A stretch of DNA of 64,000 nucleotides. It comes from an uncultured Bacilli bacterium. Its GTDB lineage: Bacteria; Bacillota_I; Bacilli_A; RFN20; CAG-631. Where the stretch lies: positions 1 to 64,000 of the forward strand of contig CANQFQ010000005.1 of NCBI GenBank assembly GCA_947599835.1, in the 5' to 3' direction. Positions 14,831 to 30,004 of the stretch are shown piece by piece (within the stretch, counting starts at the first letter, position 1; each line of letters opens with the position of its first letter). The position numbers were made by a program, and so were the translations under genes. The notes under the pieces were generated by a model. That model saw only the letters and a list, made by a program, of their open reading frames with translations. It did not search any database and was not told the DNA's origin.

Positions 14831-16037
14831 TTGGACTATAAAAATATTGAAAAAAGTGAATCTTATATGCCAGAAGATATACAATTTGCGATTTCTCCAA
14901 CTTCAATAATTGGATCTGTTAATAGAACTCAAGTTTTACAAACTAGAGATTGGCCTTATCGTGGCATAGTGAAAATGTATATGACCTTTAACAATGTGTT
15001 AAATCAAATTGATGGAAAATATCATGATCGCATTTTTATTGGGACTGGATTTATAGAAGGACCAAATTTAATGGTCACCACTGAACACTGTGGATATAAT
15101 GATGTAACTAATGATGAAAATTACGAAGATGGCATATCAAATCCTAGATTTCCCGATAAGATTGAAGTGTATGCAGGAATAAATGGTTATAGCGAACGTT
15201 CAACATCCTATATTTATTATGCAGAAGTTTCTGTAATTAATATTCAAAAAGAATATTTTAAAACTACTTCGACAAATTATGATTGGTGTGCTATGCAACT
15301 AGACCGTGACTTGGGAGTACAAACTGGTTATTATGGTAAAATCAGTAATTTGTATGAGAGTAAGGCATCTGTCTACTCTTATGGATATCCAGGAGATAAA
15401 CCAACTAATACAATGTGGGAAACTCATGGGACACTTATTGAAAAAAAATGATTATAAATATAGTTATGATTTTGACACTTATGGCGGTCAAAGTGGTTCA
15501 CCTGTTTTCATGACCGCTACTGATGGAGCTATTTATGTGTGTGGAATACACACGTCTGGTAGTTCATCTGCTAATTATGCAACTAGAATAAATTCATTTA
15601 TTTTTCATTATTTAAATAGCTTTGTGTCTTATCATAATTATGAGCATCTTGCTGCAACAATTGTCCCAACTGATTATGGCTTTGCTGATGCTTATCCAAC
15701 TGATGACTATACAAAAACAAATTATGCCACACATACTTTATCTTCTGGATTCCAATTTCAAACAAGGAGATATCGTACTGGTTATATTCAAAATGAATAT
15801 ATTGTTATGTCGCCATTTAGAAATGGCATTACAGAAGCGTTTATCGAATATAAATTTGATGTACCAGTAACAAAAATTGAGGTTGATTTAGCACATTGGA
15901 GATCTTTATCTAATGAGTGGACGTATAGTGATTATCTCAGTGCTGTTCTTAGAATACCTGATGGTAATGGATATAATAATGTATCGATTTATTATCTTCA
16001 TCAACTAATTTTCCAACAGATAGAACTAATCCGATGA
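14831..16037 (+). pseudogene. V8/glutamyl-endopeptidase-like S1B serine protease, interrupted by a +1 frameshift in an A8 tract (15441-15448)
   Basis: Catalytic His in 'LMVTTEHCG', Asp in 'NYDWCAMQLD' and Ser in 'GGQSGSPVF' are split across two overlapping frames (14831-15451 and 15306-16037). Deleting one A restores the continuous protein '...THGTLIEKNDYKYSYDFDTYGGQSGSPVF...'. Confidence 0.65.
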
Positions 16038-16920: not shown

Positions 16921-16955
16921 AAAAATTGTGCAGCCACCAGCTGCACAATTTCAAT
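16921..16955 (-). terminator. bidirectional rho-independent terminator ending the minus-strand nine-gene operon
   Basis: 9-bp perfect stem ttgtgcagc/gctgcacaa with a 5-nt loop. T-rich tracts flank it on both strands. Confidence 0.55.
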
Positions 16956-17078: not shown

Positions 17079-19805
17079 TTACTTTAACAATAGAACTGCT
17101 AACCAAATTACAGCAATTATCGAAATTATAAAATAAATTATATAAAAAATTTTAAATTCAATATTAACTTCGTCAACACCATCTTCAACATTACATCTTA
17201 CCATGTAATATCCTCTTATAGTATTAGGAATACAACCTACAAAAAAAATCGTAAGAGGTAGAAGAGATTCGTTGTCAATCTTGCATACGAGCCAAACAAT
17301 CATAACATCTAATGCCAAAGTAAAAATAATATCAAATATCACATTAAAAACATTTATTGTTTTTATTTTGGCTCTTGTTTTTCTATCTTGTACATTTACT
17401 ACTTTTCCAAATTGATCTTCTAATTCTCTATCGTTACAAAATTCAATCACGTATCTCATTTTGCCATATAAAGAATGCTTATTTACACTTGCAGGCAGTT
17501 GACTCACTGTTTTAACTTTGTAATATTCAAATAATTCATTTAAATACATATCAAATAATTTCTTACATAAATTTAATGAATTTTTTTTAATAATTTCTAC
17601 GCAATTGTCCTTAAATAAAACTGATTTATCAATAAATACATTATCTAATATTTCTTGTTTAATTTGACATTCAGCTAAAAATTCTTTTACTTTTTTCAAT
17701 TTATCAGGTAAAAATTGAAAAATGTTTTCCGAATTAGGATGTTTTTCAAAATAACAAGTTGTCGCAGAAATGTAATTCTCATCTTCAAAAAGTACACTAG
17801 CATCATCTGCTAAAGACAAATAATTACTATATTTTCGATTAATCATGTATCGAACGATATATGCATTATAATTATATTTATCAATTGATAATAACATATT
17901 ATTATATTTTGTTAATAATTCCCATTTATCTTGACAATTAGAAATTAACAATTTTTTATCTATAAAAGTTTCAATATATTCAATAAATAAATCGTTTTCG
18001 TAACTAGGAATTAACCCTAAAATAAAATCAAAAAGAGGAATAGCTTTAGTAATATCATCATTAGGCACACTTACAATTACATTAAATAACAGATTTTCAG
18101 CTTCTTCATTGAAACTATATGAAAAAAGTTCATTTTCAATCGTTTTGAAATTATTTTGATTAAAGAAATAAGCAGATTTTTGCTTATGATCAAGCAAATT
18201 ATGAACATATAAAAAGTTATTTAACAAAGCAATACTGCATGAAGGATCCACTTCTAATATATTTTTATAATATTTGCTGGAAACAGATAATGACGGAAAT
18301 AAACTAGCAAAGGTTATATTCATATCAATATATTTTTTTGTATCATCTATAGTTTTAATTAATGAATCAAAAAGTTGTGTGTCACAGGTTTCTTTTGCAT
18401 GAGCGTACATTATATTTGTTAATTCATCTATTTTTTTATCGTCTGATTCAGATAAAGTGATATATTCTTCATAGCATATTCTATCTTGTGTATTGTAAAC
18501 TCTCATATAGAGCAAATTATAATATTTACTTCTTTCCTCAAAATTAGAAGTGGCAAGTGCTTTTTCAAAATAATCAATGTAGCCAATAGAACTACTGACA
18601 AGAGTAAAGGTTTTTTCACTATCAATTGCATTTGATGCTAAGAACAATAGCCAATAAACTTTCCCAACATTTGGATTATTCTTAATGAATTCGTTTGCAA
18701 AACGAATGGCTAAATCATATTTTTTAGAAGTTAAAAAATCTTCTATCATTTTTATTTTCGATGTATCAGAAGCGGTTACTTTAGATAATGCATTATTGCT
18801 AGTATCAATATTTCTTTTTTTGATAACTTGTTTAATGGTATCTTTTTTACTAACTTTTACTTTTGAATAATCCTTTCTATCAATATGAAAATCAATGTCG
18901 TTGACTTTGTATTTTTCAATAAATGATTTAATGATATCAAATGCATATGCATTATTATATTGAACACCTTGAATTTTTCCATTTATTTTTGGCAGCTTTT
19001 CAATAATTTGGTTGGTAAACACAATGGTAACGCTATCATTTTCTTTCGATTTATCATTAATCATTTGAATAAATCTAGTATATTCGTTTTGAACCCAAGG
19101 AGTTCTTAAATAATTTTCATCAAGACAAACGATTAACATACATTTCGCTGAGTATAAAGCATATAAAATTCTGGCTTCATATTTTGCACCAGCTTGATTT
19201 TTAATTTCAACTTCAGAATAGAAAGGCTTATAGCCCTCTTCTTTTAATCGGTAATATAAATCTTGAGCAATGCGACTATCTTCAGTAAATCCTTTGTTTT
19301 CATCACGAACTTTAACACAAATAAAACAATCATAAGATAATCCACTTTGTTTTAAATTATAAAATTCATCTTTAATTTCGTCTATTTCCACTGCTTTTTC
19401 TTGATAAATTTTTCTTTGTTCAACATTAGCATATTTTAAAGCGAGTTGATAATCCTTATCAGCAATGAATTTTTTGTTATTAATATCGTGACATATAGGT
19501 TGAAGATGTTTGTTGGCTACATCTTTTAAATATTGTATTTTATGACTTGCTAAGGCCATCCCAAAATAGGCTTCGGGTTCTGTTTCATCTTCTTCAAGAA
19601 CATTTTTAAAAGTTTCATAGGCATTATCAAATTCACACAAATCTAAATGATGTTTAGCTAATTGAATATCATTTAGATTTTCTTTTTTTATTGGTAATGT
19701 ATATGAATTGAAACATCTTTTACATTGAATTACACCATTTTTAGCCGTTGAAATATCTAAGGGTTCCCCACATGTTTCACACGTAAATTTAATTAATCCA
19801 TCCAT
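17079..19805 (-). CDS. zinc-ribbon + TIR-like domain protein with long alpha-helical region and C-terminal transmembrane tail anchor
   Basis: N-terminal C-x2-C...C-x2-C ribbon 'CETCG...CKRC'. Residues ~150-260 'YDCFICVKV...IAQDLYYRLKEEGYKPFYSE...CMLIVCLDENYLRTPWVQNEY' match the TIR fold pattern (compare plant 'DVFLSYRG...LSENYASSSWCLDEL'). The last ~25 aa 'FYIIYFIISIIAVIWLAVLLL' form a hydrophobic helix. Confidence 0.6.
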   Translation of the reverse strand: MDGLIKFTCETCGEPLDISTAKNGVIQCKRCFNSYTLPIKKENLNDIQLAKHHLDLCEFDNAYETFKNVLEEDETEPEAYFGMALASHKIQYLKDVANKHLQPICHDINNKKFIADKDYQLALKYANVEQRKIYQEKAVEIDEIKDEFYNLKQSGLSYDCFICVKVRDENKGFTEDSRIAQDLYYRLKEEGYKPFYSEVEIKNQAGAKYEARILYALYSAKCMLIVCLDENYLRTPWVQNEYTRFIQMINDKSKENDSVTIVFTNQIIEKLPKINGKIQGVQYNNAYAFDIIKSFIEKYKVNDIDFHIDRKDYSKVKVSKKDTIKQVIKKRNIDTSNNALSKVTASDTSKIKMIEDFLTSKKYDLAIRFANEFIKNNPNVGKVYWLLFLASNAIDSEKTFTLVSSSIGYIDYFEKALATSNFEERSKYYNLLYMRVYNTQDRICYEEYITLSESDDKKIDELTNIMYAHAKETCDTQLFDSLIKTIDDTKKYIDMNITFASLFPSLSVSSKYYKNILEVDPSCSIALLNNFLYVHNLLDHKQKSAYFFNQNNFKTIENELFSYSFNEEAENLLFNVIVSVPNDDITKAIPLFDFILGLIPSYENDLFIEYIETFIDKKLLISNCQDKWELLTKYNNMLLSIDKYNYNAYIVRYMINRKYSNYLSLADDASVLFEDENYISATTCYFEKHPNSENIFQFLPDKLKKVKEFLAECQIKQEILDNVFIDKSVLFKDNCVEIIKKNSLNLCKKLFDMYLNELFEYYKVKTVSQLPASVNKHSLYGKMRYVIEFCNDRELEDQFGKVVNVQDRKTRAKIKTINVFNVIFDIIFTLALDVMIVWLVCKIDNESLLPLTIFFVGCIPNTIRGYYMVRCNVEDGVDEVNIEFKIFYIIYFIISIIAVIWLAVLLLK

Positions 19806-19826
19806 ATTATTTCTTCCTTTCGCAAG

Positions 19827-20570
19827 TTATTTTTTAATATTTACTTTACACTCTTCAATAAATTTTTGAATTGTGTTTGATGGGATTGCAAAATTCATAC
19901 CTTCGGCATCCGTTATTCCTGAAACTACCATGCCAATAACTTTTCCATTAGCATCGAACAATGGACCTCCTGAATTTCCACCATTAATAGCACAATCCGT
20001 CATTATTAAAGATTTTCCATTAACATTTCTTAATTTGTCACTAACAATACCTTCAGTGATACATGTTCCATACCCTAATGAATTACCAACAGCAAACACT
20101 TTTTGACCATTCTTTATTAAGTTTGAATCTGCAAAAGTTATATGATTTGTTTTCATTGATACATCCATTAATTTTAATAATGCAAGGTCTACACCAGACC
20201 CTCTACCCCCTTGATCATCGCCAATCGCAATCACTTTAGTTGTTATTTTTTTATTATTTAAAATAACAACAACTGTTTCTGCAATGTTGCTATTAAATGT
20301 GACAACATGGGTATTCGTAATTGCATATCCATCACTTGAAATCAAAAATCCTGAACCAGCAGCAGCTTCGCCATTACTCGATTGTGTAAAGATTTCTAAA
20401 ATGGCATCACAATTTTTTTCATAAACCATAGCGCCACTATCTAATTTTTCATTTTTAAATGATGGATTTTCATCATAATTATCTTTATCAATGGTGGAAC
20501 CACAAAAGTTACAAATATATTTATTATTAACTAGTTTCATTGTGCCACCACAAACTTTACAAATTGCCAT
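19827..20570 (-). CDS. zinc-ribbon + trypsin-like (HtrA/S1C-type) serine protease
   Basis: N-terminal 'CKVCGG...CNFCG' ribbon. Catalytic triad in 'TNTHVV', 'DLALLKL' and 'GNSGGPL'. No PDZ domain. Confidence 0.65.
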   Translation of the reverse strand: MAICKVCGGTMKLVNNKYICNFCGSTIDKDNYDENPSFKNEKLDSGAMVYEKNCDAILEIFTQSSNGEAAAGSGFLISSDGYAITNTHVVTFNSNIAETVVVILNNKKITTKVIAIGDDQGGRGSGVDLALLKLMDVSMKTNHITFADSNLIKNGQKVFAVGNSLGYGTCITEGIVSDKLRNVNGKSLIMTDCAINGGNSGGPLFDANGKVIGMVVSGITDAEGMNFAIPSNTIQKFIEECKVNIKK

Positions 20571-20591
20571 AACTCTTACTCCTTTAAAAAA

Positions 20592-23372
20592 TTATTTTTC
20601 ATTTTTATAATCCCAGATTAGTTGTGATTTATGACTCCCATACCACTGTTTATCCCAATTAGATGGAGTCAATCCCAAAAATGGTTTTTTGCGTTCTAAT
20701 TTAACAATTAAGGAACTAGGGCATAATGAAAATATATCATATCCAATTTTTGAAACACTACTTGGGATAACTATACTTTTTAAAGAATCGCAATTATAAA
20801 ATGCATGAGAACCTATGCTTGATAATTTACTATTTGATTCAAAATTAATAGTTTGTAATGAGAAGCAATTAGAAAATGCAGATTCTCCGATACTTGTTAC
20901 ACTACTTGGAATAACTATGTTGGCTAATGAACTACAAACATTAAATACAGTTTTTCCGATACTTGTTAATTTACTATTTGATTCAAAATTAACAATTTTT
21001 AATGATTTGCAATTAGAAAATGCAGATTCTCCGATACTTGTTACACTACTTGGAATAACTATGTTGGCTAATGAACTACAATCATTAAATACAGTTTTTC
21101 CGATACTTGTTAATTTACTATTTGATTCAAAATTAACAATTTTTAATGATTTGCAATTAGAAAATGCAGATTCTCCGATACTTGTTACACTACTTGGGAT
21201 AACTATACTTTTTAAAGAATCGCAATTATAAAATGCATGAGAACCTATGCTTGATAATTTACTATTTGATTCAAAATTAATAGTTTGTAATGATTCACAA
21301 TTACAAAATGCATATTCTCCGATACTTGTTACACTACTTGGGATAACTATGTTTGTTATTGAAGTACAATCCCTAAAAGCCTTTTTATCTATAACTGCCA
21401 CATCATATTGCTTTCCATTAATAGTAATTGTTGATGGAATGACTACATCATTTCCTAACTGACTTGTATATTTACTTATTACTGCTTTCCCTTCTATAAT
21501 TAAATAATGTATTCCTGCTTGCTCTAAATAATTATTATCATTGATTCCCCAGTAAACAGCTTGATTATCTGGATTCCAATCATTATCCCAACCTTCTGGT
21601 TTTGATAAAGCTGCACAATAGATTGTTAAAGAATAGCAATCGTCAAATACCTCGTATCTTATACTTGTTACACTACTTGGTATTACTATGCTTTCTAAAC
21701 AATAACAATTCACAAAAGCGCGTATTCCTATACTAGTAACATCATATTGTTTTCCATTAATAGTAATTTGTGATGGTATTACCACATCATTTTTTAATTT
21801 ATTTGTATGCCCAGTTACTACTGCTTTGTTATCTATAATTACATAAATTATTCCATTTTGTTCTAAAAAATTATTTTTATTAATTTCAAAATAAACAGGG
21901 TTATGACCATAATTACATATTTTATCCCAATCTCTAGGTTTTGATGTTACTTCACAATATATTGTTAATGTACTACAATCACGAAATACAGAATCTCCAA
22001 TACTTGTTACACTACTTGGTATAACTATACTTGGTAAATATTCACATTTAGAAAAAGCCTCATCACCAATTTCTTTGACGCTACTTGGTATAATTATACT
22101 TTCCAATTTGCTTTTTCTAAATGCATTTTCTTCAATATAAATAAGACTCTTAGGTAGTTCAACACTGGTAACATCAGCATTTTCAAATGCAGATTTTTCA
22201 ATTGTTTCAATAAAATCAGGAATTTTAACTACTGTATCATGACCAATATATTTGATTAATGAAGACCCTTTTATATTGAATTTTCCTTCATCATACATTG
22301 GTTTACTAGAATGACTATTAATAATTATTTGCTTTTGAGCATTACTTAATTCACTGATTTGCTCTTGCATTTTTTTAGTTGCATTTTCTTGCTCTTTATT
22401 TTTTTCTAATTCTTTTTGCTTTTGTTCTTCTTTTCTTTTTTTACTTTCTGGAGTGTGACTCTCTACATACTGAACTATTTTATCTAAGCAACTTAAAGTA
22501 TGACTTCTATCAATACCTTGAAGTTTTTGGTTTCTTCCCGGTATTTTTTCGATAACTTCTCTATTATATATAATGACAATACTATCTGTATCTTTAGTAT
22601 CCTCGTTAATCATTTGCAAAAAACGTGAATATTCATTTTTAACCCATTTCGTCCGTAGATATTCTTCTTTGGAACAGACAATTAACATACATTCACTTTC
22701 ATATAAAGCATATAAAATTCTTGCTTCATAATCTGCACCTGTCGCATTTCTTAATTCTCTTTCTGATAAAAATGGTCTATAGCCTTTGCCTTTTAATTCA
22801 TAATACAATTCATCGGCAAATTGATAATCCTCAGTTTTATTTTGTTGATTCTCATCACTAACTTTTACACAAATAAAACAATCATAGGCCAATCCACTTT
22901 CTTTTAATTGATAGAATTCTTGTTGAATTGTATCAATTTCAGATGCTTTTTCTAAATATATTTTCTTTTGATTTTCTGTTGCATATAAAGTGGCTTTTAA
23001 ATAATTGATATCATCACTCATTTTTTTATTATTAATTTCGTGACATATAGGTTGTAAACGATTGTTTACCTCATCTTTTAGATATTGTATTTTATGGGTT
23101 GCTAAAGCCATACCAAAATAGGCTTCGGGTTCTGTATTATCTTCTTCTAATACTTTATTAAATGAATCATAGGCTTTATCAAATTCACACAAATCTAATT
23201 GATTGTTTGCTATTTGTAGTAATGTTTTTGTATTATTACTAGCATTTTCTTTAGGTAAAGTAAAAATACTATGGCAATATTTACATTCAATTATACCATT
23301 ATGGGCATTAGTTACATCTAAAGTATTTCCACAATTTTTACATACAAAATCATTTAATTGTGCACTCATCAT
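20592..23372 (-). CDS. zinc-ribbon + TIR-like domain + coiled coil + BspA-type leucine-rich-repeat protein
   Basis: Paralog of 17079-19805 in its first ~270 aa ('CKNCG...CKYCH' ribbon, TIR-like 'YDCFICVKVSDEN...CMLIVCSKEEYLRTKWVKNEY'). Then a K/E-rich coiled coil. The C-terminal half is 'IVIPSSVTSIGESAFSNC' BspA-like LRR units. Confidence 0.6.
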   Translation of the reverse strand: MMSAQLNDFVCKNCGNTLDVTNAHNGIIECKYCHSIFTLPKENASNNTKTLLQIANNQLDLCEFDKAYDSFNKVLEEDNTEPEAYFGMALATHKIQYLKDEVNNRLQPICHEINNKKMSDDINYLKATLYATENQKKIYLEKASEIDTIQQEFYQLKESGLAYDCFICVKVSDENQQNKTEDYQFADELYYELKGKGYRPFLSERELRNATGADYEARILYALYESECMLIVCSKEEYLRTKWVKNEYSRFLQMINEDTKDTDSIVIIYNREVIEKIPGRNQKLQGIDRSHTLSCLDKIVQYVESHTPESKKRKEEQKQKELEKNKEQENATKKMQEQISELSNAQKQIIINSHSSKPMYDEGKFNIKGSSLIKYIGHDTVVKIPDFIETIEKSAFENADVTSVELPKSLIYIEENAFRKSKLESIIIPSSVKEIGDEAFSKCEYLPSIVIPSSVTSIGDSVFRDCSTLTIYCEVTSKPRDWDKICNYGHNPVYFEINKNNFLEQNGIIYVIIDNKAVVTGHTNKLKNDVVIPSQITINGKQYDVTSIGIRAFVNCYCLESIVIPSSVTSIRYEVFDDCYSLTIYCAALSKPEGWDNDWNPDNQAVYWGINDNNYLEQAGIHYLIIEGKAVISKYTSQLGNDVVIPSTITINGKQYDVAVIDKKAFRDCTSITNIVIPSSVTSIGEYAFCNCESLQTINFESNSKLSSIGSHAFYNCDSLKSIVIPSSVTSIGESAFSNCKSLKIVNFESNSKLTSIGKTVFNDCSSLANIVIPSSVTSIGESAFSNCKSLKIVNFESNSKLTSIGKTVFNVCSSLANIVIPSSVTSIGESAFSNCFSLQTINFESNSKLSSIGSHAFYNCDSLKSIVIPSSVSKIGYDIFSLCPSSLIVKLERKKPFLGLTPSNWDKQWYGSHKSQLIWDYKNEK
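20760..21310. repeat. near-perfect ~144-bp tandem DNA repeats inside the LRR coding region
   Basis: Units starting at 20878, 21022 and 21166 are essentially identical (48-aa unit 'NFESNSKLTSIGKTVFNDCSSLANIVIPSSVTSIGESAFSNCKSLKIV'). The flanking segments 20761-20877 and 21195-21310 are also mutually identical. Confidence 0.7.
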
Positions 23373-23389
23373 TTTTCCTCCCCTATGAA

Positions 23390-25462
23390 TTAATTTCCAC
23401 TGCGATCATTCATTTGCTTCCATTCTAATAACTTTTCGATATCTTCTTTTTGAACAGAGGATGAAAAAGTTTCAAGAATAGAAGTAAAATCATTCATATT
23501 GATATATTTTTTAGTTCCACCAATTGCTCTTAAGGCAGAACGTTCTTCCACTTGATCTAAGAAGTTTGAAATATCAGAACCATTAAATCCATTCATTCTT
23601 TCAACTAAAGCATCAATATCGATATCATCTATGACTTCAACAATACCTTTTGCCTTCAATTTTTTAAGTCGTAATTCTAACATATATTTTCTAGCATCAT
23701 TATCCGGCAAACCCACATAAACGCGATTTCCAAAACGACCCGGACGAATAAATGCACTATCCACATCCCATGGTTTATTCGTTGCAGCGATGCAAAATAA
23801 GATGTTATTGCTTTTTTTACCATATTCTTCAATGCCTTGAAGTTGTGCTAATAATTCTGATCTTAATTGCTTTGCATATTGGGATTTAGTGTTTTTAGGT
23901 GAAATGGCGTCCATTTCATCAAAATAAATCACAGCACATGGAAATTCCCTTGCTTGACTGAATAAAGCTCTAACTGCTTTTTCCGTATTTCCTGCACCTT
24001 GATTTAATAAATCGGAAGGTTTAACCGAACAAAACTTAGCATGAATTTCATTAGCAATGGCAGCAGCAATCATTGTTTTTCCTGTTCCTGGAGGACCATA
24101 TAAAAATAAACCTCCTCCACTTTTACGAACATAACCTTCAAAGGCCTTCGGCTCTTGTAAAGGTAATAACACTTTAACTTTTACAACATTTTTAACCTCT
24201 TCAAGCCCAGCAATATCATCAAACTTAATGGTGGGCAATTGATCCCAATTAAATTTAAATAAACTATTGTCAGTATTATAATTTTCATCTAACACTTTAT
24301 CTTCTGGTTTACTATTTTTATCATTATGATCAACACGTTCCTCACGAGGTATATTATTATCTTTACGAGATATATTAATATTTAAATCTTGAACACGGAT
24401 AAGGGCGATTTCTTCATTAGATATTTCTTTTAATCTAGCAATGCGTTTGGATTGATTCGTTATTATATTTTCAAACAGATTTCTAACATCTCGGCCATTA
24501 CCAAAATTTCTATCTCGATTTTGGTACAAATCATCAAAATATTGTTTTAAAACTGCTTTTGCTGCAGGTTCTAAAACATATTGATTTTTATCGCATAAAT
24601 TGATGAAAATTTGATATAAATCATCGCCATTATAATCTTCAAAATGAATATAATTCTTAAATCTTGAACGTAATCCTGGATTAGATTGAATAAACTTTTC
24701 CATCAAGTTTTCATAACCAGCAATAATAACAACGAGATTATCTCTTTTGTCTTCCATGTCTTTTAAAATTGTATCGATGGCTTCATTTCCAAAATCTGTA
24801 GCGCCTTTATTGGCTAAAGAATAAGCTTCATCAATAAATAAAACACCCCCATATGCTTTATCTAAAACCGCTTGCGTTTTAAGTGCCGTTTGTCCCACAT
24901 AACCAGCAACTAATTCTTGGCGGTCTACTTCAACTAATTGACCTTCACTTAAAATTCCAAGTGCTGCATAAATTGAAGCCATTAAACGGGCTACAGTTGT
25001 TTTTCCTGTTCCAGGATTTCCAGTAAATACTAGATGATAAGACATATCCGGAATTGACATGTTTCTTTCTTTTCTCATCTTAAAAACTTTGATTTGGTCA
25101 ATCCAGTCGTGAACTTGATTTTTAACTTTTTCAAGACCTATTAATTCATCTAATTGTTTTAAGGCTTCTTCTAATGAAACCTTTTCGTTTTTGATGACTT
25201 TTATATCGTTTGTAACTTCTTTATTTTTTTCTACCGGCTTTGGTTCTTTTTGGATACTATCCGCAAATTGAATGATGCTTTTCGCTCTTTCGTATCTTGC
25301 TTTTTGAAGTTCACCTTTCGTTTCTTTTGCCATATTTAACATTTGTTCTGCGGCTAATAAATAATATCTTTTAGCAAGCATCTTATCGCCTTTTTCTAAA
25401 CATTCTTTGGCTTTTTTATAATATAAATTAAAGGTCTCGTTAAGTATACTAATGTCTTTCAT
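23390..25462 (-). CDS. MIT-domain protein with two AAA+ ATPase domains (Vps4/SpoVK-like)
   Basis: N-terminal three-helix MIT-like region 'YYKKAKECLEKGDKMLAKRYYLLAAEQMLNMAKE'. First AAA of CbbX/SpoVK type 'FTGNPGTGKTTVARL'. Second classical AAA 'LYGPPGTGKTMIAAAIANE...YFDEMDAI'. Confidence 0.7.
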   Translation of the reverse strand: MKDISILNETFNLYYKKAKECLEKGDKMLAKRYYLLAAEQMLNMAKETKGELQKARYERAKSIIQFADSIQKEPKPVEKNKEVTNDIKVIKNEKVSLEEALKQLDELIGLEKVKNQVHDWIDQIKVFKMRKERNMSIPDMSYHLVFTGNPGTGKTTVARLMASIYAALGILSEGQLVEVDRQELVAGYVGQTALKTQAVLDKAYGGVLFIDEAYSLANKGATDFGNEAIDTILKDMEDKRDNLVVIIAGYENLMEKFIQSNPGLRSRFKNYIHFEDYNGDDLYQIFINLCDKNQYVLEPAAKAVLKQYFDDLYQNRDRNFGNGRDVRNLFENIITNQSKRIARLKEISNEEIALIRVQDLNINISRKDNNIPREERVDHNDKNSKPEDKVLDENYNTDNSLFKFNWDQLPTIKFDDIAGLEEVKNVVKVKVLLPLQEPKAFEGYVRKSGGGLFLYGPPGTGKTMIAAAIANEIHAKFCSVKPSDLLNQGAGNTEKAVRALFSQAREFPCAVIYFDEMDAISPKNTKSQYAKQLRSELLAQLQGIEEYGKKSNNILFCIAATNKPWDVDSAFIRPGRFGNRVYVGLPDNDARKYMLELRLKKLKAKGIVEVIDDIDIDALVERMNGFNGSDISNFLDQVEERSALRAIGGTKKYINMNDFTSILETFSSSVQKEDIEKLLEWKQMNDRSGN

Positions 25463-25531
25463 GATGTTATCCCCTTTAAAATTCTTTGTTATATTTCATT
25501 ATTTTAGGTATAAATAAAACGCAAAAAGAAA

Positions 25532-26104
25532 TTAGTTTCCCATTTTCTTTTTTAGTTCAGCTAATTCCTTTTCAATCATTGTGTCTGTCATATTATCTGA
25601 AGTAACTTCATTACCAATAAGGTGCTCTAATTCTTCTTTTTCCTCTGGTGATGAACTAGCATTTGTTTCAAATGCAGATGAAGTTTCTTCCATGAAGTTT
25701 TCCATTTGCGTTGCTTGAATTTCAGCACCAATCATGGCTTCAGAGAATTGTTTTTGAACTTTATCAAATTCTTTTTCTTTTGTCAGTTTTAACATATCTT
25801 TACTTAAAATACTCATTCCCTTTAGAAATTCTTTCGTCATTTGTGTCATATCTTTCATTTGCGAAGTAATTTCAAAATTTAATTTCATTTCATAAATTCT
25901 TCTTTGCTGAGTAATGACCATTTTAAGTCCAGAAATCGCTAAATTATATTGCGCAGTTAAACCTTTTTCTTTTGCTTGTTTTCCAGCATCAATATAGGTT
26001 TGCTTTTGCTTTTCTAACTGTTCGATTTGTTTATTCATCGCATTAATGGTTTGTTTTATTTGCATTCTTTTGGCAATTTCTTTTCTATGATTCATAGCTA
26101 GCAT
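25532..26104 (-). CDS. Snf7/ESCRT-III-family protein with C-terminal MIM1-like motif
   Basis: Helical hairpin pattern 'GLKMVITQQRRIYEMKLNFE...KEFLKGMSILSKDM...FDKVQKQFSEAM' matches the Snf7 core. Acidic linker. C-terminus 'DTMIEKELAELKKK' fits the MIM1 consensus (D/E)xxLxxRLxxL(K/R). Its start overlaps the upstream stop (TAATG). Confidence 0.55.
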   Translation of the reverse strand: MLAMNHRKEIAKRMQIKQTINAMNKQIEQLEKQKQTYIDAGKQAKEKGLTAQYNLAISGLKMVITQQRRIYEMKLNFEITSQMKDMTQMTKEFLKGMSILSKDMLKLTKEKEFDKVQKQFSEAMIGAEIQATQMENFMEETSSAFETNASSSPEEKEELEHLIGNEVTSDNMTDTMIEKELAELKKKMGN

Positions 26105-26709
26105 TACTCCTTCTTCGTTTCAACATTTTTTTGTTTTTCATTAACTTCATATAATTCTTGTTCACTAGCTACTTGGTCTTCTTGTTCAAGCATAGCAAGT
26201 AAAGCATTATCTTGTTCATTCATACCATAAATGGTTTCATTCTTTTCATAACTTTCTTCAATAGCGTTAAATAATTCATCAGAATCAGTTAATATATCTT
26301 CTGCGGCGATTCTAATATTTAATGCTTGATTTAAAAATTTGGCCAAGCCTTTTTGATCACTTAATAGCTTATTTAAAGGCATTTTCGTGTTATTTTTAAA
26401 GAATTGATTATCATCAATTGCATTTTTTAAACGGTTTAATAATTGCGAATTATAAAGTAAATACAAAATTCTTTGTACATCTTGTTCGCGTTCTTTTTTT
26501 AAAACATTAATTTTCTTTGCATATAAAAGTTTAATGGCTTTATCGGTTTCTTTACGACCTTTTTCCATTAATTCATTGACTTTATTTTGTTTTTCCAATA
26601 ATCCATCTTCAAGTTCTTGAGATTGCTTATCTAGTTGACAAATGGCATCGACAACCTCTTCACGTGTTAATTTTTGATATTTGCTTTTAAATGGCCACAT
26701 ATCCATCAC
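26104..26709 (-). CDS. Snf7/ESCRT-III-family protein (second paralog)
   Basis: N-terminal 'MWPFKSK' resembles CHMP N-termini. 'VVDAICQLDKQSQELEDGLLEKQNKVNELMEKGRKETDKAIKLLYAKKINVLKKEREQ' matches the Snf7 alpha1-alpha2 hairpin. Acidic C-terminal region. Confidence 0.5.
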   Translation of the reverse strand: MMDMWPFKSKYQKLTREEVVDAICQLDKQSQELEDGLLEKQNKVNELMEKGRKETDKAIKLLYAKKINVLKKEREQDVQRILYLLYNSQLLNRLKNAIDDNQFFKNNTKMPLNKLLSDQKGLAKFLNQALNIRIAAEDILTDSDELFNAIEESYEKNETIYGMNEQDNALLAMLEQEDQVASEQELYEVNEKQKNVETKKE

Positions 26710-27036
26710 CTATAATTTTGAATTTCTTTCTGCTATTAATACATAAAGTTCTTTGATCATTTTAGCTGTTTTTTCAGCATCATCTTTTTCTTTATATAAC
26801 CATTGCTTGAAGTCATCAATTGCGTTGGCGATTTTTTTATCTCCATCATAAACTTTAGATAAATCAGAAGCCGTTAAATATTGAAGTTTTTCTTGAAGTT
26901 TTTTTAATTCTTCTTTGCAAGTTGCATTACTAGTTAAACTAATTAAAACATCAATCATGACCGCATTTTTTGAAATAAGTTGTTGATCTTCACTTCTTTG
27001 CGTACTTTTTAATTGTTTCTTTTGAAAATAATTCAT
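26710..27036 (-). CDS. small alpha-helical protein of unknown function (operon member)
   Basis: ORF 26710-27069. I prefer the ATG at 27034-27036 (protein starts 'MNYFQKK'), which overlaps the stop of the upstream gene by 4 nt. Predicted helical. Confidence 0.4.
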   Translation of the reverse strand: MNYFQKKQLKSTQRSEDQQLISKNAVMIDVLISLTSNATCKEELKKLQEKLQYLTASDLSKVYDGDKKIANAIDDFKQWLYKEKDDAEKTAKMIKELYVLIAERNSKL

Positions 27037-28106
27037 TTTTTGTCCTCCTCTGTTAATTTTGCTCCACATTCACTACAAAAAATTGCACCGGCATCATTTT
27101 TATGTTTACATTTTGGACATACAATCGGCTCTTTAGATACTCTAAAGCCACATTTAGGACAGAATTTATCACTTGCTTTATAAGTGGCACCGCATTTAGG
27201 ACAAACGTTATGGTGTGCACTCATTTCTTTTTGATTACCCATGATTTTTAAAACTTCATAATAAGCTTGTTTATCTCTAAGTTCTAATTCTCTTAAATAT
27301 TTTTGCTTTTCCCATTCTTTATCATTTAAGCGTTCTATTTCTTTTAAATATTCTTTTAATTGTTCTTGTTTTCTTTTTTCAGCCGCTTCTAATTCTTCTT
27401 GTTTTTTCTTTTCAGCAGCTGCAGTTTCGATTGCTGCCATTTCATCATCTTGTAAATGAATATCTTCAATAATAAAGTTAACAAGACTAATGCCCCATTC
27501 TTGGATAAATTTGTCGCTTAAAAGTTTGCCAATTTCTTCAGCAATTCTTTTCTTATTTAAGGCAAATTTGTCATAAGTCATTTTTTCACTTGTAACTACT
27601 TTTAAGAAGCAATCCGCAAATTCATTGATAACTTCACCAGAAAAACGTCTTTGGAAATCTTCAAGATTAAATTCTTTTTTAGATCCAACTACTTTTCTAA
27701 AAAATTGTTCATGATTAGAAATACTAATACCAAATTGTCCTCTCGCACCAATGGTGATGACTTTATTCGAAACTTCATCGCGATATCTAAACCGATTAGG
27801 CGTTCCCCATAAAATAATCACATTAGTTTCTTTAGGCATATAAACAACTTCCACTGAAATGCCTTTTTTCCAGTTTTTTATTTCGTTTTTACTTTCAAAA
27901 ATAGCATATGTACCACTTTCATAACTCTTAGCATTGCCACCGCCAAGGATGAGCATTGCCTTATGCGTATAAGGAACTTCTAATAAAGCCTTTTTATCGT
28001 TGACAACGCCATTTACACGCACAAATAAAATGTTATTATCATCCACACTAGCCTTACATAAATTTTGTTCAAATTTGATAACTTGGACTTTTTTATTAAA
28101 TATCAT
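27033..28106 (-). CDS. SPFH/band-7-like (YdjI-like) domain protein with C-terminal triple zinc ribbon
   Basis: C-terminus has three CxxC...CxxC pairs ('CPKCG...CPKCG...CPKCK...CSECG'). The middle is a K/E coiled coil. The N-terminal ~200 aa beta-rich domain resembles the Band_7_1/YdjI family found next to pspA in Bacillus; that assignment is inference. RBS AAAGGAG upstream. Confidence 0.45.
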   Translation of the reverse strand: MIFNKKVQVIKFEQNLCKASVDDNNILFVRVNGVVNDKKALLEVPYTHKAMLILGGGNAKSYESGTYAIFESKNEIKNWKKGISVEVVYMPKETNVIILWGTPNRFRYRDEVSNKVITIGARGQFGISISNHEQFFRKVVGSKKEFNLEDFQRRFSGEVINEFADCFLKVVTSEKMTYDKFALNKKRIAEEIGKLLSDKFIQEWGISLVNFIIEDIHLQDDEMAAIETAAAEKKKQEELEAAEKRKQEQLKEYLKEIERLNDKEWEKQKYLRELELRDKQAYYEVLKIMGNQKEMSAHHNVCPKCGATYKASDKFCPKCGFRVSKEPIVCPKCKHKNDAGAIFCSECGAKLTEEDKK

Positions 28107-28687
28107 AATGCACTGTACTCCTTTAGATAAATAGTATATTTCGCCTTTATAATAACCCCCCCCGCTTTATGTCAACTTAAAATTACATTTTTCGACATTG
28201 GTGTTACAAAAAGCATTCAAAGACCTTATATAGACTACATTTGGAAGCTATTCCATCCTCATTATTTTTAGAAAAAGCAACACAAAAAACGGAACTTTGG
28301 ATTCAAAAAGTGAATGCTTAGAACTCTATTTAATCATTAAAAAAATGACACTCATTGGCCTAGAATTGAGCGTATCATGGCTAGTGAAAGTATAGGTAAT
28401 CGCCTATAATCAAACGTAAGATTCTTATCAAAAAGCAAGTTTATTTTGTCTTATGATTTCTATTTAAATATACGATTATATCGGTAATTTTAAAAGTTTT
28501 CAAAATAACGTGTGCCTCATTTTTATGCATCAAAGAGGTCTATTCAAAACAATGATGAAATTCCTTCATCATAACCGCTATTTCCTTTTTTTTGAAGCAA
28601 TTTAATATCATGTTTTCCTTTTTTTTGAAGTTTTTTAGGCGTCTACTTGCCACTTTTTTGAAATTGTGATATTATTTCATTGTAAGG

Positions 28688-30004
28688 ATGGTGCTATTTA
28701 TGGAACGACAAGCTATGGAAAATCTAATCGATTGGAAACAAAATCATAAAGGAAAACCATTAATTATTTATGGCCCTAGGCAAGTAGGAAAAACTTATTT
28801 GGTTAGAGAATTTGCTAAAAAATTTTATGATAATATTTTTGAAATCAATTTTGAAATTGATGATAATGCTAATAAAATATTTGAAGATAATTTAACTATC
28901 AAACAACTTCTAAAGCGGTTATCGGCCTACGATGTTGATAATATCATCATTCCTAAAAGAACGCTTATATTTTTAGATGAAGTTCAAAAATGCCCAAGAG
29001 CAATAACAGCCTTAAAATCATTTGCACAAGATGGTAATTATGATGTCATTGCCTCTGGTTCCATGCTTGGTGTTACTTTAAATAGTGTATCATCCTATCC
29101 AGTAGGTTATGTTGAAACAATCTATTTAAAACCTTTGTCATTTAAAGAATTCTTATGGGCTAATAAATATAGTGATAGTCATGTTCAAGACCTCAAAGAA
29201 TATTATAAAAACGAACAAAAGGTACCCGAAGGATTACATAATATTTATAATAATTTATTTTTACAATATATTGTTGTTGGCGGTATGCCAGAAGTCGTAC
29301 AAACCTTTATAGAAACGAATAATATTGGATTAGTAGTTAAAAAACAACAATCTATTATTGATAGCTACAGCAAAGATATTGCTAAATATTCAACAAACTT
29401 AATCAAAGAAAGAGTTAGAGAATGTTATCATTCGATTCCTGATCAATTAGCAATGGATAATAAAAAATTCCAATATAAATTGCTTCAATCTGGAGGTAAA
29501 TCAAGTCGTTTTTATTCTAGTATCCAATGGATTGAAGATGCTGGGCTAATTAATAAAATATATCGTTTGAAAACATTTGATATTCCTTTAAGAGCCTATC
29601 AAGATAAGTCTTGTTTCAAATTATATTTCATGGATACAGGTTTATTACTAGCTATGTATGGTGGTAAAAATCTCCAAGGAAAGATATTAGCGGGTGAAAT
29701 AGGAATCTTTAAAGGAGCTTTGTTTGAAAATGTAATTGCTCAAATTCTTGTTGGTAATGGCTTAGTCCCTTATTATTATCGTCGTGATGATCGGTTAGAA
29801 ATTGATTTTGTAATTACACTAGATGATAAAATTGTACCAATTGAAGTAAAAGCAGGAACAAATACCAAATCAAAAAGTTTCATAAATATTATCGAGAAAC
29901 AAAACTTAGAATATGGAATCAAATTATCCATGAACAATGTGAATTGTACTAATCCAAAATATAAATGTTTTCCATTATATATGACCATGTTTATTAAAGA
30001 TTAA
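28688..30004 (+). CDS. AAA+ ATPase of the AAA_14/DUF4143 family
   Basis: Walker A 'IIYGPRQVGKTYL' and Walker B 'LIFLDEVQ', with a C-terminal DUF4143-like region. The true start may be the ATG at 28700 ('MERQAMENL'). Confidence 0.55.
   Translation: MVLFMERQAMENLIDWKQNHKGKPLIIYGPRQVGKTYLVREFAKKFYDNIFEINFEIDDNANKIFEDNLTIKQLLKRLSAYDVDNIIIPKRTLIFLDEVQKCPRAITALKSFAQDGNYDVIASGSMLGVTLNSVSSYPVGYVETIYLKPLSFKEFLWANKYSDSHVQDLKEYYKNEQKVPEGLHNIYNNLFLQYIVVGGMPEVVQTFIETNNIGLVVKKQQSIIDSYSKDIAKYSTNLIKERVRECYHSIPDQLAMDNKKFQYKLLQSGGKSSRFYSSIQWIEDAGLINKIYRLKTFDIPLRAYQDKSCFKLYFMDTGLLLAMYGGKNLQGKILAGEIGIFKGALFENVIAQILVGNGLVPYYYRRDDRLEIDFVITLDDKIVPIEVKAGTNTKSKSFINIIEKQNLEYGIKLSMNNVNCTNPKYKCFPLYMTMFIKD

Follow-up and report, generated by a model that had tools for sequence, protein, structure and literature searches.

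A cluster of eight genes on the minus strand (g1 to g8, numbered in the 5' to 3' order of transcription) was analyzed between positions 17079 and 28106 of a 64,000-nt stretch of DNA from contig CANQFQ010000005.1 of an uncultured bacterium, and this whole stretch is referred to as the window. [quoted passage not shown] The core of the module is formed by an SPFH protein with zinc ribbons (g1), a small protein without family assignment (g2), two candidate Snf7-type proteins (g3 and g4) and an ATPase with an MIT-like domain (g5), and it is followed by two TIR proteins (g6 and g8) and a serine protease (g7). An ESCRT-type module with a membrane-linked immune output is regarded as the best overall explanation of the data and is given a probability of about one half.

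According to a survey published in 2024, ESCRT homologues are present in archaea and not in bacteria, and archaeal ESCRT loci include an SPFH-coiled-coil-zinc-ribbon protein (Makarova et al., PMC10936438). A review from 2025 describes a Vps4-like ATPase as apparently absent from bacteria (PMC7619361), and a survey of the phage shock protein (PSP) systems reported a sporadic occurrence of Snf7 homologues in bacterial genomes (PMC11237479). Since reviews deny bacteria a Vps4-like ATPase, an operon joining ESCRT-III proteins and a recycling ATPase with TIR proteins and a protease was unexpected in a bacterium.

Probable Snf7-type proteins and the MIT-AAA ATPase

The g4 protein has 445 close homologues, without exception unnamed proteins from uncultured Clostridia. 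Direct scans of g2, g3 and g4 against Pfam, PADLOC and NCBIfam gave nothing significant, and profiles deduced from narrow alignments of g4 and g3 yielded no match among the PDB sequences. An exhaustive hidden Markov model (HMM) search of 1.84 billion representatives with the g4-family profile detected 381 relatives, and 86 diverse full-length relatives were aligned, all listed source relatives having E-values of 5e-15 or lower to the g4 profile. Thirteen of these 86 proteins match the Pfam family Snf7 (best E-value 1.4e-9), every other family being matched by at most one member, and one relative, a fusion protein, attains the Snf7 gathering score with 27.3 bits. Among the PDB sequences, the g4-family profile matches human CHMP2A with an E-value of 5.2e-5 (residues 7-149 against 4-142), and its 16 matches in all include CHMP2A, CHMP1A, CHMP1B, Vps24 and CHMP3. 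The PspA_IM30 family (PF04012) was matched by neither g3 nor g4, and the 25 families listed for the alignment of 86 proteins do not include it; PspA or Vipp1 chains are likewise absent among the PDB matches to the profile, and Vipp1 appears as a fold match only.

The AlphaFold2 model of g4 (predicted local distance difference test, pLDDT, 64) places helices at residues 2-47, 50-107, 110-147, 154-164 and 172-189, and these boundaries fit the layout of five or six helices with a long α1-α2 hairpin that is expected of ESCRT-III proteins. The top Foldseek matches were CHMP1B, CHMP2A-CHMP3, Vipp1, CdvB and the Asgard ESCRT-IIIB protein, with probabilities of 0.8 to 0.93 (0.60 for Vipp1), yet with E-values of 0.1 to 0.6. 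The 12 C-terminal residues of g4 are conserved (IEKELxELKKKM or IEKELaELKKKM) and display the spacing of a MIM1 motif, i.e. hydrophobic residues at positions i, i+4 and i+7 followed by a lysine. The residues I177 and E180 are invariant, L181, L184 and K185 are conserved to at least 90%, and the spacing is clearer still in the g4 homologue of locus L055 (ISERLEKLK). In all likelihood, g4 is a divergent Snf7-type ESCRT-III protein.

The g3 gene adjoins g4 and encodes a protein of the same size, whose start at M4 is backed by 28 orthologues and whose N-terminal MWPFKSKY is conserved; the g4-family consensus begins with MxxFKxK. The comparison of g3 with the g4 family by hhalign resulted in P-values of 7e-5 to 3e-4 in local mode (best value 7.4e-5 over 161 colinear columns) and of 1e-5 to 2e-5 in global mode, with colinearity across approximately 160-190 columns. 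Reversed sequences, used as controls, gave values of 0.14-0.18 and other helical proteins of 0.02-0.06. Comparisons of g3 and of the g4 family with one CHMP4B sequence by hhalign were uninformative and carry no weight here. Under the option '-M first' the P-values were just 0.004-0.017, HMM-sequence searches with g3 were not significant, and an hhalign comparison of narrow g3 and g4 alignments, both with an effective number of sequences (Neff) below 2, returned nothing. These profile comparisons make a moderate case that g3 is probably a paralogue of g4. Regarding the two Snf7-type proteins proposed in a preliminary description of the locus, g4 was thus substantiated at the family level by the matches to Snf7 and CHMP2A, and the proposal for g3 stands with this moderate case.

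The N-terminal domain of g5 (first 80 residues) gave weak hints only with sequence methods and a fold search was therefore needed. TPR_8 was matched by 7 and MIT by 2 of the 26 orthologues in the Pfam search of the domain alignment, its profile yielded at most weak hints of TPR or MIT among the PDB sequences and Pfam, and a homologue search returned seven fragments. The N-terminal bundle was confidently modelled and its best structural matches are MIT domains. Judged from this model, the N-terminal domain of g5 has the MIT fold. The remainder of the protein matches the Pfam families AAA, AAA_lid_6 and AAA (4e-33 for the second AAA domain, D2), so that the overall layout of an MIT-like three-helix region and two AAA domains corresponds to the one described previously.

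The first AAA domain (D1) scores with the NCBIfam models spore_V_K (295 bits), EccA (283 bits) and CbbX (242 bits), each below the cut-off, and matches CbbX in the PDB with an E-value of 2.6e-57. The D2 domain scores with CDC48 (195 bits), CdvC (190 bits, cut-off 650) and PAN (189 bits), again below the equivalog cut-offs, and with Vps4_C (PF09336) at 19.4 bits (E = 1e-3), under the cut-off of 21.3. It resembles IetA or TRIP13 in the PADLOC models (IetA 9e-41), the NCBIfam score for IetA being 120 bits versus a cut-off of 510, and its best relatives in the PDB, ranked first by phmmer, are the D2 domains of VCP and VAT. The Walker A, Walker B and arginine-finger regions are retained in both AAA domains of g5, and an aromatic pore loop is retained in D1 only (YVG), the corresponding D2 positions reading NQGAG. 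The single classical AAA domain with a KW[ML]GE pore loop that is typical of Vps4 is not a feature of the g5 protein of the window. The N-terminal domain of g5 heads three ATPase architectures across the loci described below (HMM E-values 1e-22 to 1e-40): the form with D1 and D2 of the window and most loci, whose classical domain has lost the aromatic pore loop that D1 retains as YVG, a form with D1 alone in L021, L039, L042 and L043, and a form whose only AAA domain is a classical one, encoded in L051, L055 and, by a gene cut off at the end of a contig, L052. This single-AAA form has the pore loop SKWVGESEK in L051 and SKWQGEAVR in L055, and the L051 protein exceeds the Vps4_C cut-off of 21.3 with 23.9 bits. 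By its domain order and motifs, the form with MIT and a single classical AAA domain has the Vps4 architecture. Since the classical AAA domain of the window protein is nearest to the D2 domain of VCP and VAT, g5 is best termed Vps4-like in design, as opposed to a strict or demonstrated Vps4 orthologue.

Gene cluster, accessory proteins and conservation

A conservation scan with one genome per GTDB species resulted in 49 loci, all from uncultured gut Clostridia and labelled almost exclusively as Christensenella, Christensenellaceae, Christensenellales, Clostridia or Clostridiales, with several Candidatus genera. The g4 gene is present in all 49 loci, g3 in 47, g5 in 46, g2 orthologues in 38, and g1 with its C-terminal ribbons in 37, and the full core g1 to g5 occurs in the same order in 34 of the 49 species, which indicates that the cluster is more than a chance assembly. 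Genes for zinc-ribbon TIR (Znr-TIR) and/or zinc-ribbon trypsin proteins accompany the core on the same strand and with short gaps in 30 of these 34 loci, and the retrieved region of the other four is without TIR and trypsin genes. Relatives of the Znr-TIR proteins were counted in 33 and a trypsin protease gene in 20 of the 49 loci. These accessory genes vary in number, size and place, being located after g5, between g4 and g5 (a TIR gene in at least seven loci) or before g1, where L016 carries both TIR and protease genes. A conserved chromosomal position was considered and rejected, as the outer flanks are never common to different species. Signals for Snf7/ESCRT-III and for MIT as well as a strong co-conservation of the genes, on which the preliminary description had staked its proposal, were all found.

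In the wider family, relatives of g4 are fused to RuvB-like AAA domains together with NERD or TnsA-like nucleases, or to ATPases of the FtsK/SpoIIIE type (examples are P0291, P0341, P0358, P0373, P0292 and P0297). A fusion of a Snf7-like domain with a partner of the RuvB-like AAA/nuclease or the FtsK-type class is found in L055/L056 (8001-15154), along with a trypsin protease, a Band_7_1 protein, a second Snf7-like gene whose product ends with ISERLEKLK and a 388-aa MIT-AAA protein. In L057, genes for a Sel1-trypsin and an SPFH-like protein come after a Snf7-FtsK fusion. Locus L054 (5097-14725) encodes a Snf7-like protein and an MIT protein with two AAA domains, and the genes after them specify a Ser/Thr kinase, a PP2C phosphatase and a VWA protein, an arrangement that recalls the archaeal ESCRT loci linked to kinases and phosphatases (PMC10936438). 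The most divergent Christensenella locus, L051 (12054-15588), carries a BrxL-like Lon-type ATPase gene (BrxL_N and BrxL_ATPase, 5.8e-115) between the genes for the Vps4-like ATPase and a Znr-TPR-TIR protein, in place of the trypsin protease. Since L051, L054, L055/L056 and L057 combine such parts, the set of Snf7-like, SPFH, MIT-AAA and trypsin proteins is a recurring bacterial module with exchangeable effector-like parts. The fusions with nucleases, RuvB-like and FtsK-like ATPases seem to form a Snf7-based class of systems of their own, not described so far.

The likeness of g1 to YdjI and YdjG of Bacillus that had been noticed earlier holds, as Band_7_1 (1.3e-15), Zn_Ribbon_1 (1e-13) and DZR (1.6e-11) are matched within one protein. 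A hydropathy scan of g1 for a transmembrane (TM) or hydrophobic segment found none. The g2 protein, a co-conserved member of the core, has no match in Pfam, NCBIfam or PADLOC, and profile comparisons by hhalign with g3, g4 and MIT domains revealed no relationship.

Both g6 and g8 match the Pfam family TIR_2 (7.4e-11 and 1.7e-9, respectively) and are 57% identical across the first 300 residues. In the hydropathy scan no TM segment was predicted for g6, which ends with a prominent repeat array (LRR_5, 4e-99), and the two segments of g8, a protein without leucine-rich repeats (LRR), were located at residues 817-835 and 880-898. The DNA of the LRR region of g6 (20818-22032) contains young tandem repeats with a 144-nt unit in 3.8 copies (88% identity) and a 339-nt unit in 1.9 copies, and a 138-aa ORF (open reading frame) on the plus strand (20815-21231) is an antisense artefact of these repeats. 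Conserved motifs of g6 are the ribbon-type cysteines, yD.Fi..K and WV.NE..Rf, and among 38 Znr-TIR proteins the ribbon cysteines, the βA-strand motif and WV.NE..Rf are conserved to at least 90%. In TIR NADases, the WxxxE motif contains the catalytic glutamate. The corresponding glutamate of g6 and g8 is a candidate catalytic residue by this published motif and not by structural superposition. Most Znr-TIR proteins have two to four predicted TM segments, several of them followed by C-terminal LRRs of the BspA type. The Znr-TIR proteins of L014, L016, L022 and L053 (1150-1520 aa) combine a ribbon, a TIR domain, helical repeats, three or four TM segments and C-terminal BspA-type LRRs, a predicted topology that is probably that of a Toll-like receptor in reversed order, with the TIR domain inside and the LRRs outside the cell.

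The protease of the operon, g7, matches Trypsin_2 (1e-28) and Zn_Ribbon_TF (1.4e-5) in Pfam and a DegP/HtrA subfamily in NCBIfam (5e-40, below the cut-off). The translation contains the motifs of the catalytic triad around His (TNTHV), Asp (DLALL) and Ser (GNSGGP), and neither a PDZ domain nor a signal peptide was found in g7. The two TIR-like proteins and the protease listed in the preliminary description are consequently all present. Every operon-linked accessory protein starts with a CxxC..CxxC ribbon, whatever its other domains, and this applies to the TIR proteins, the protease, a protein of L010 with Listeria-Bacteroides repeats (Flg_new) and GLUG motifs, multi-ribbon proteins and a Hint-domain protein; g1, in turn, always ends with ribbons. 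As the common denominator of all accessory proteins, the N-terminal ribbon may be the best candidate for a recruitment tag. A homotypic pairing of the g1 ribbons with the accessory ribbons was rejected, since the two belong to different ribbon subtypes.

The region 17079-28106 contains eight ORFs of at least 80 aa on the minus strand, the largest gap at a junction being 69 nt, and no further ORF in the gaps fits as a ninth gene. The preliminary description had counted nine genes and is in this respect only partly confirmed; its account of a one-strand packing with overlaps or gaps of 0-70 nt agrees with a 4-nt overlap of g1 and g2 and gaps of 9 nt (g2/g3), 8 nt (g3/g4), 69 nt (g4/g5), 17 nt (g5/g6), 21 nt (g6/g7) and 21 nt (g7/g8). 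The starts of g2, g3 and g4 were fixed by orthologue alignments and independent metagenome gene calls, which use the 108-aa version of g2. The intergenic region upstream of the operon (28107-28687, approximately 580 nt) includes the top promoter-like site of the whole scan (28503 to 28475), and such sites showed no overall enrichment (85 found versus 83 expected). The strong terminator noted earlier at 16921-16955 is real: although it was overlooked by a simple terminator scan, its hairpin folds with -19.1 kcal/mol (z = -3.9), and 1 of 200 shuffled sequences folds as well. In view of the tight junctions, the promoter-like site and the terminator hairpin, it is reasonable to regard g1 to g8 as one putative transcription unit (Table 1).

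The G+C content of the window is approximately 30%. The flanks consist of ordinary chromosomal genes encoding an arginyl-tRNA synthetase (ArgRS), a class A penicillin-binding protein (PBP1), YitT, a GH16 protein and an ABC transporter, and a prophage or defence-island setting in the window was rejected in view of these genes. Directly upstream of the promoter region, a divergently oriented gene on the plus strand (28688-30004) encodes an AAA_14/DUF4143 ATPase, whose adjacency to the system is not conserved in other species. On the other side, two overlapping ORFs on the plus strand (14831-15451 and 15306-16037, together 14831-16037) resemble a single serine protease of the trypsin/V8 type that a frameshift has divided. 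The first contains the His motif TTEHCG and the second the Ser motif GGQSGSPVF, and neither has a Pfam match at 1e-5.

Table 1. Features of the gene cluster in the window
Feature	Position	Strand	Description
g1	27033..28106	-	SPFH (Band_7_1, YdjI-like), coiled coil, two to three C-terminal zinc ribbons
g2	26710..27036	-	108 aa from M12 (119 aa from upstream ATG); no family assignment
g3	26104..26700	-	probable ESCRT-III paralogue, 198 aa, N-terminal MWPFKSKY, acidic C-terminal tail
g4	25532..26095	-	very probable divergent Snf7-type ESCRT-III protein, 187 aa (190 aa from upstream ATG), MIM1-like C-terminal helix
g5, whole gene	23390..25462	-	MIT-like bundle, AAA D1, AAA D2
g5, residues 1-69	25256..25462	-	MIT-like three-helix bundle
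g5 D1, residues ~96-364	24371..25177	-	SpoVK/CbbX/EccA-type AAA and AAA_lid_6; Walker A, Walker B and YVG pore loop intact
g5 D2, residues ~407-690	23390..24244	-	classical AAA; Walker A, Walker B and second region of homology (SRH) intact; pore loop degenerate (LLNQGAGNTEK)
g6	20592..23372	-	N-terminal zinc ribbon, TPR-like helices, TIR (WVKNE), coiled coil, BspA-type LRR array
g7	19827..20570	-	N-terminal zinc ribbon and HtrA/DegP-like trypsin-fold serine protease
g8	17079..19805	-	N-terminal zinc ribbon, TPR-like helices, TIR (WVQNE), long helical region, two C-terminal TM segments
candidate sigma-70-like promoter	28475..28503	-	TTGAAA-17-TATAAT, 11 of 12 matches; consensus match alone
intrinsic terminator	16922..16952	-	14-bp hairpin followed by a T run

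Proposed mechanism and rival explanations

From the established gene identities, domain architectures, motifs and co-conservation, we infer the following course of events. The SPFH protein g1 would mark a membrane patch from the inner side, in the manner of YdjI, which does so for PspA in Bacillus subtilis; there, PspA depends on YdjI for its positioning at the membrane according to Scholz et al. (2021), as cited in PMC10936438. The g3 protein would seed a co-polymer of g3 and g4 on the lipid through its N-terminus MWPFKSK, and the MIT domain of g5 could dock on the C-terminal helix of g4. The AAA ring of g5 would then pull subunits out of the polymer, probably via the YVG pore loop of D1, and the polymer would be remodelled or reset. 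Through the zinc ribbons, the protease and the membrane-anchored TIR proteins may be recruited to this polymer platform. The polymer might assemble in response to envelope damage or to a ligand recognized by the LRR domains, it would gather the TIR domains into clusters and activate the cleavage of NAD+, and the ATPase and the protease could tune or reset the system.

The output of the module is tentatively assigned to a membrane-linked immune or abortive-infection response. This output is favoured because the WxxxE motif is conserved, the LRR genes are diversifying and contain young repeats, and parts of nuclease or BrxL type are present in the relatives; the variable number and architecture of the TIR-LRR genes, together with their young tandem repeats, have the flavour of a conflict system, as do the nuclease fusions and the BrxL-like neighbour of g4 relatives and the match of D2 to the anti-phage ATPase IetA. 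It is conceivable, but rather doubtful, that within a genuine bacterial Snf7/Vps4-like machine the ESCRT-III polymer dynamics control TIR signalling or sort TIR-LRR receptors of Toll-like topology into vesicles. If true, this would provide a prokaryotic precedent for ESCRT-controlled innate-immune receptors and, depending on the phylogeny, point either to a transfer from archaea to Clostridia in the gut or to a pre-archaeal origin of the pairing of ESCRT-III and Vps4.

Several observations weigh against an ESCRT-type module with an immune output. Neither g3 nor g4 itself has a significant Pfam match, the alignment of g4 alone with Snf7 being insignificant (E = 8.4) though full-length. The composition-bias term of the CHMP2A match of the g4-family profile is high, and the same search returned a designed helical repeat protein with an E-value of 1.4e-4, so that the case for g4 was built on specificity and colinearity and not on the E-value alone. 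The structural model of g4 is moderate and its Foldseek E-values are weak. The classical AAA domain of g5 is nearer in sequence to the D2 domain of VCP/Cdc48 than to katanin, and no Vps4 chain is found among the matches listed. The core proteins are 55-72% identical, which is unusually well conserved for a defence system, no relatives of g4 were detected on the viral contigs of IMG/VR, PADLOC recognises no system in the window, and the flanks are housekeeping genes. The recruitment step is a guess, since the ribbons of g1 differ in subtype from those of the accessory proteins.

Part of these observations would also suit the view that the proteins are not ESCRT-like at all and that their similarities reflect helical composition, g3 and g4 being generic coiled coils and g5 a generic chaperone of the AAA+ type that bears a TPR-like cap. 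The negative direct searches of Pfam and the PDB with g3 and g4, the bias term and the designed repeat in the profile search, the preponderance of TPR_8 over MIT among the g5 orthologues and Foldseek E-values above 0.05 for both g4 and the N-terminal domain of g5 are as expected from such proteins. Generic coiled coils, however, would hardly match Snf7 as the sole repeatedly matched Pfam family, with 13 members versus at most one for any other and one relative at the gathering score, nor align colinearly and over the full length with five different ESCRT-III proteins. The reversed-sequence controls failed in the comparison of g3 with the g4 family, and a canonical MIT-AAA-Vps4_C protein takes the place of g5 in L051. 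We regard this view as very improbable.

The main rival to an immune output is vesicle budding or cargo sorting, in which the polymer and the MIT-AAA ATPase would bud the membrane outward, away from the cytoplasm. The cytoplasmic ribbon would serve as a tag for loading membrane proteins with surface domains, such as the TIR-TM-LRR and Flg_new/GLUG proteins, into extracellular vesicles or for removing them, and the protease would trim cargo or ESCRT-III tails. This is the canonical task of ESCRT-III and Vps4 in archaea and eukaryotes, and the archaeal ESCRT loci with an SPFH-coiled-coil-zinc-ribbon protein are predicted to act as cargo sorters via protein-protein contacts (PMC10936438). The high conservation of the core is that of cell-biology machinery, all accessory proteins share the cytoplasmic N-terminal ribbon, and most of them contain two to four TM segments, several with BspA-type LRRs, modules that like the Flg_new and GLUG repeats of L010 are typical of cell surfaces. 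Sorting leaves unexplained, however, why the cargo is nearly always a TIR protein with a conserved WxxxE motif, and it does not account for the fusions of g4 relatives with nucleases and with RuvB- or FtsK-like ATPases; moreover, the g6 protein of the window is without a TM segment, and vesicles are without supporting evidence in these uncultured organisms. Vesicle sorting is considered rather unlikely. Even less probable is a housekeeping membrane repair system similar to Psp, i.e. a Snf7-type counterpart of the pspA-ydjGHI genes of B. subtilis with the TIR and protease genes as mere neighbours. The combination of YdjI-type SPFH and YdjG-type zinc ribbons in g1, the housekeeping flanks and the four full-core loci without TIR and trypsin genes in the retrieved region are in line with such a system, and the original function of ESCRT-III is considered to be membrane repair (PMC7619361). 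Mere neighbours would not be expected, however, in 30 of the 34 full-core loci and on the same strand when the outer flanks are never conserved, nor with TIR genes lying between g4 and g5 or, together with a protease gene, upstream of g1, and a trypsin protease also accompanies the distant clusters of Snf7-like, SPFH and MIT-AAA genes. Membrane repair alone is disfavoured because of this constant linkage and the N-terminal zinc ribbon shared by all these neighbours.

With an ESCRT-type module as the preferred reading, the locus and its at least 49 relatives represent a bacterial system that is compact, conserved and present in abundant gut Clostridia. Its two candidate Snf7-type subunits, SPFH recruiter and MIT-AAA ATPase would allow a minimal cycle of ESCRT-III and ATPase to be tested in bacteria, and the locus bears on the question of when the ESCRT-III/Vps4 partnership arose. 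A new coupling of membrane remodelling to immunity or to surface-protein trafficking is suggested by the association with WxxxE-bearing TIR proteins, LRR ectodomains and a protease, and the fusions with nucleases, RuvB-like and FtsK-like ATPases point to a larger unexplored class of Snf7-based bacterial systems.

Comparison with known systems

No description of a system composed of an SPFH-Znr protein, two Snf7-like proteins, an MIT-AAA ATPase, Znr-TIR proteins and a Znr-protease was found by full-text searches of the literature, which together with the PADLOC result agrees with the initial impression that the system is not a characterized one. Among the known defence systems, Thoeris and CBASS with TIR domains share the retained WxxxE motif, and there is a weak match to ThcB4 of Thoeris type III (NCBIfam, 21 bits versus a cut-off of 220). 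In contrast to these systems, no ThsA-like, SIR2, SLOG or cyclase partner was found, and PADLOC detected no Thoeris component and nothing for g6 and g8. IetAS is similar in that the classical AAA domain matches IetA and a serine protease partner is present, but the protease of the window has the trypsin/HtrA fold, and no match to the subtilase IetS was obtained with Pfam or PADLOC. Neither the TIR anti-phage systems nor IetAS contain a counterpart of the ESCRT-III and SPFH core.

The systems described in the PSP survey likewise join, in some bacteria, an ESCRT-III-superfamily protein (PspA or a divergent Snf7) with a double AAA+ ATPase, and bacterial proteins with MIT and AAA domains do exist. 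According to this survey and its Text S2.2 (PMC11237479), the partner of PspA is a double AAA+ protein with an inactive N-terminal AAA domain, and bacterial Vps4-like ATPases are derived from archaea and occur without Snf7, which is replaced by a TPR-6TM protein. In the window, by comparison, both AAA domains retain Walker A and Walker B and the partners are two candidate Snf7-type proteins; the set of SPFH-Znr, TIR and protease genes is not described in that survey. The pspA-ydjGHI genes of B. subtilis also combine an ESCRT-III-superfamily protein with a Band_7_1 SPFH protein, the likely membrane recruiter, and with zinc ribbons. They differ from the module of the window, which has two probable subunits of Snf7 type instead of the PspA_IM30 type, a dedicated MIT-AAA ATPase, a fusion of SPFH and ribbons in one protein and the attached TIR and protease genes.

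The archaeal Meth_adaptin ESCRT loci (PMC10936438) resemble the cluster in joining ESCRT-III, MIT-AAA and SPFH-coiled-coil-zinc-ribbon proteins, and some of their accessory proteins carry ribbons. Their defining components, adaptin-appendage, GOLD and ProX proteins, were not found here; the accessory proteins of the window are instead TIR, LRR and protease proteins, and the host belongs to another domain of life. A bacterial host also distinguishes the cluster from the ESCRT-III and Vps4/CdvC systems of archaea and eukaryotes, such as CdvB/CdvC of Sulfolobus and the two-subunit ESCRT-IIIA/B with Vps4 of Asgard archaea. Moreover, no ESCRT-I, ESCRT-II, CdvA or winged-helix partners were detected, the partners being the SPFH-Znr protein, the TIR proteins and the HtrA-like protease, and the ATPase of the window contains an additional AAA domain of the SpoVK/CbbX type that bears the sole aromatic pore loop. 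With an AAA sequence nearer to the D2 domain of VCP/Cdc48, its likeness to Vps4 is one of architecture. The correspondence with these systems nevertheless extends to several details, as one predicted subunit (g4) ends with a MIM1-like helix and the other (g3) begins with a hydrophobic and basic N-terminus, and as sister loci encode single-AAA ATPases with a KW[VQ]GE pore loop, of which that of L051 matches Vps4_C.

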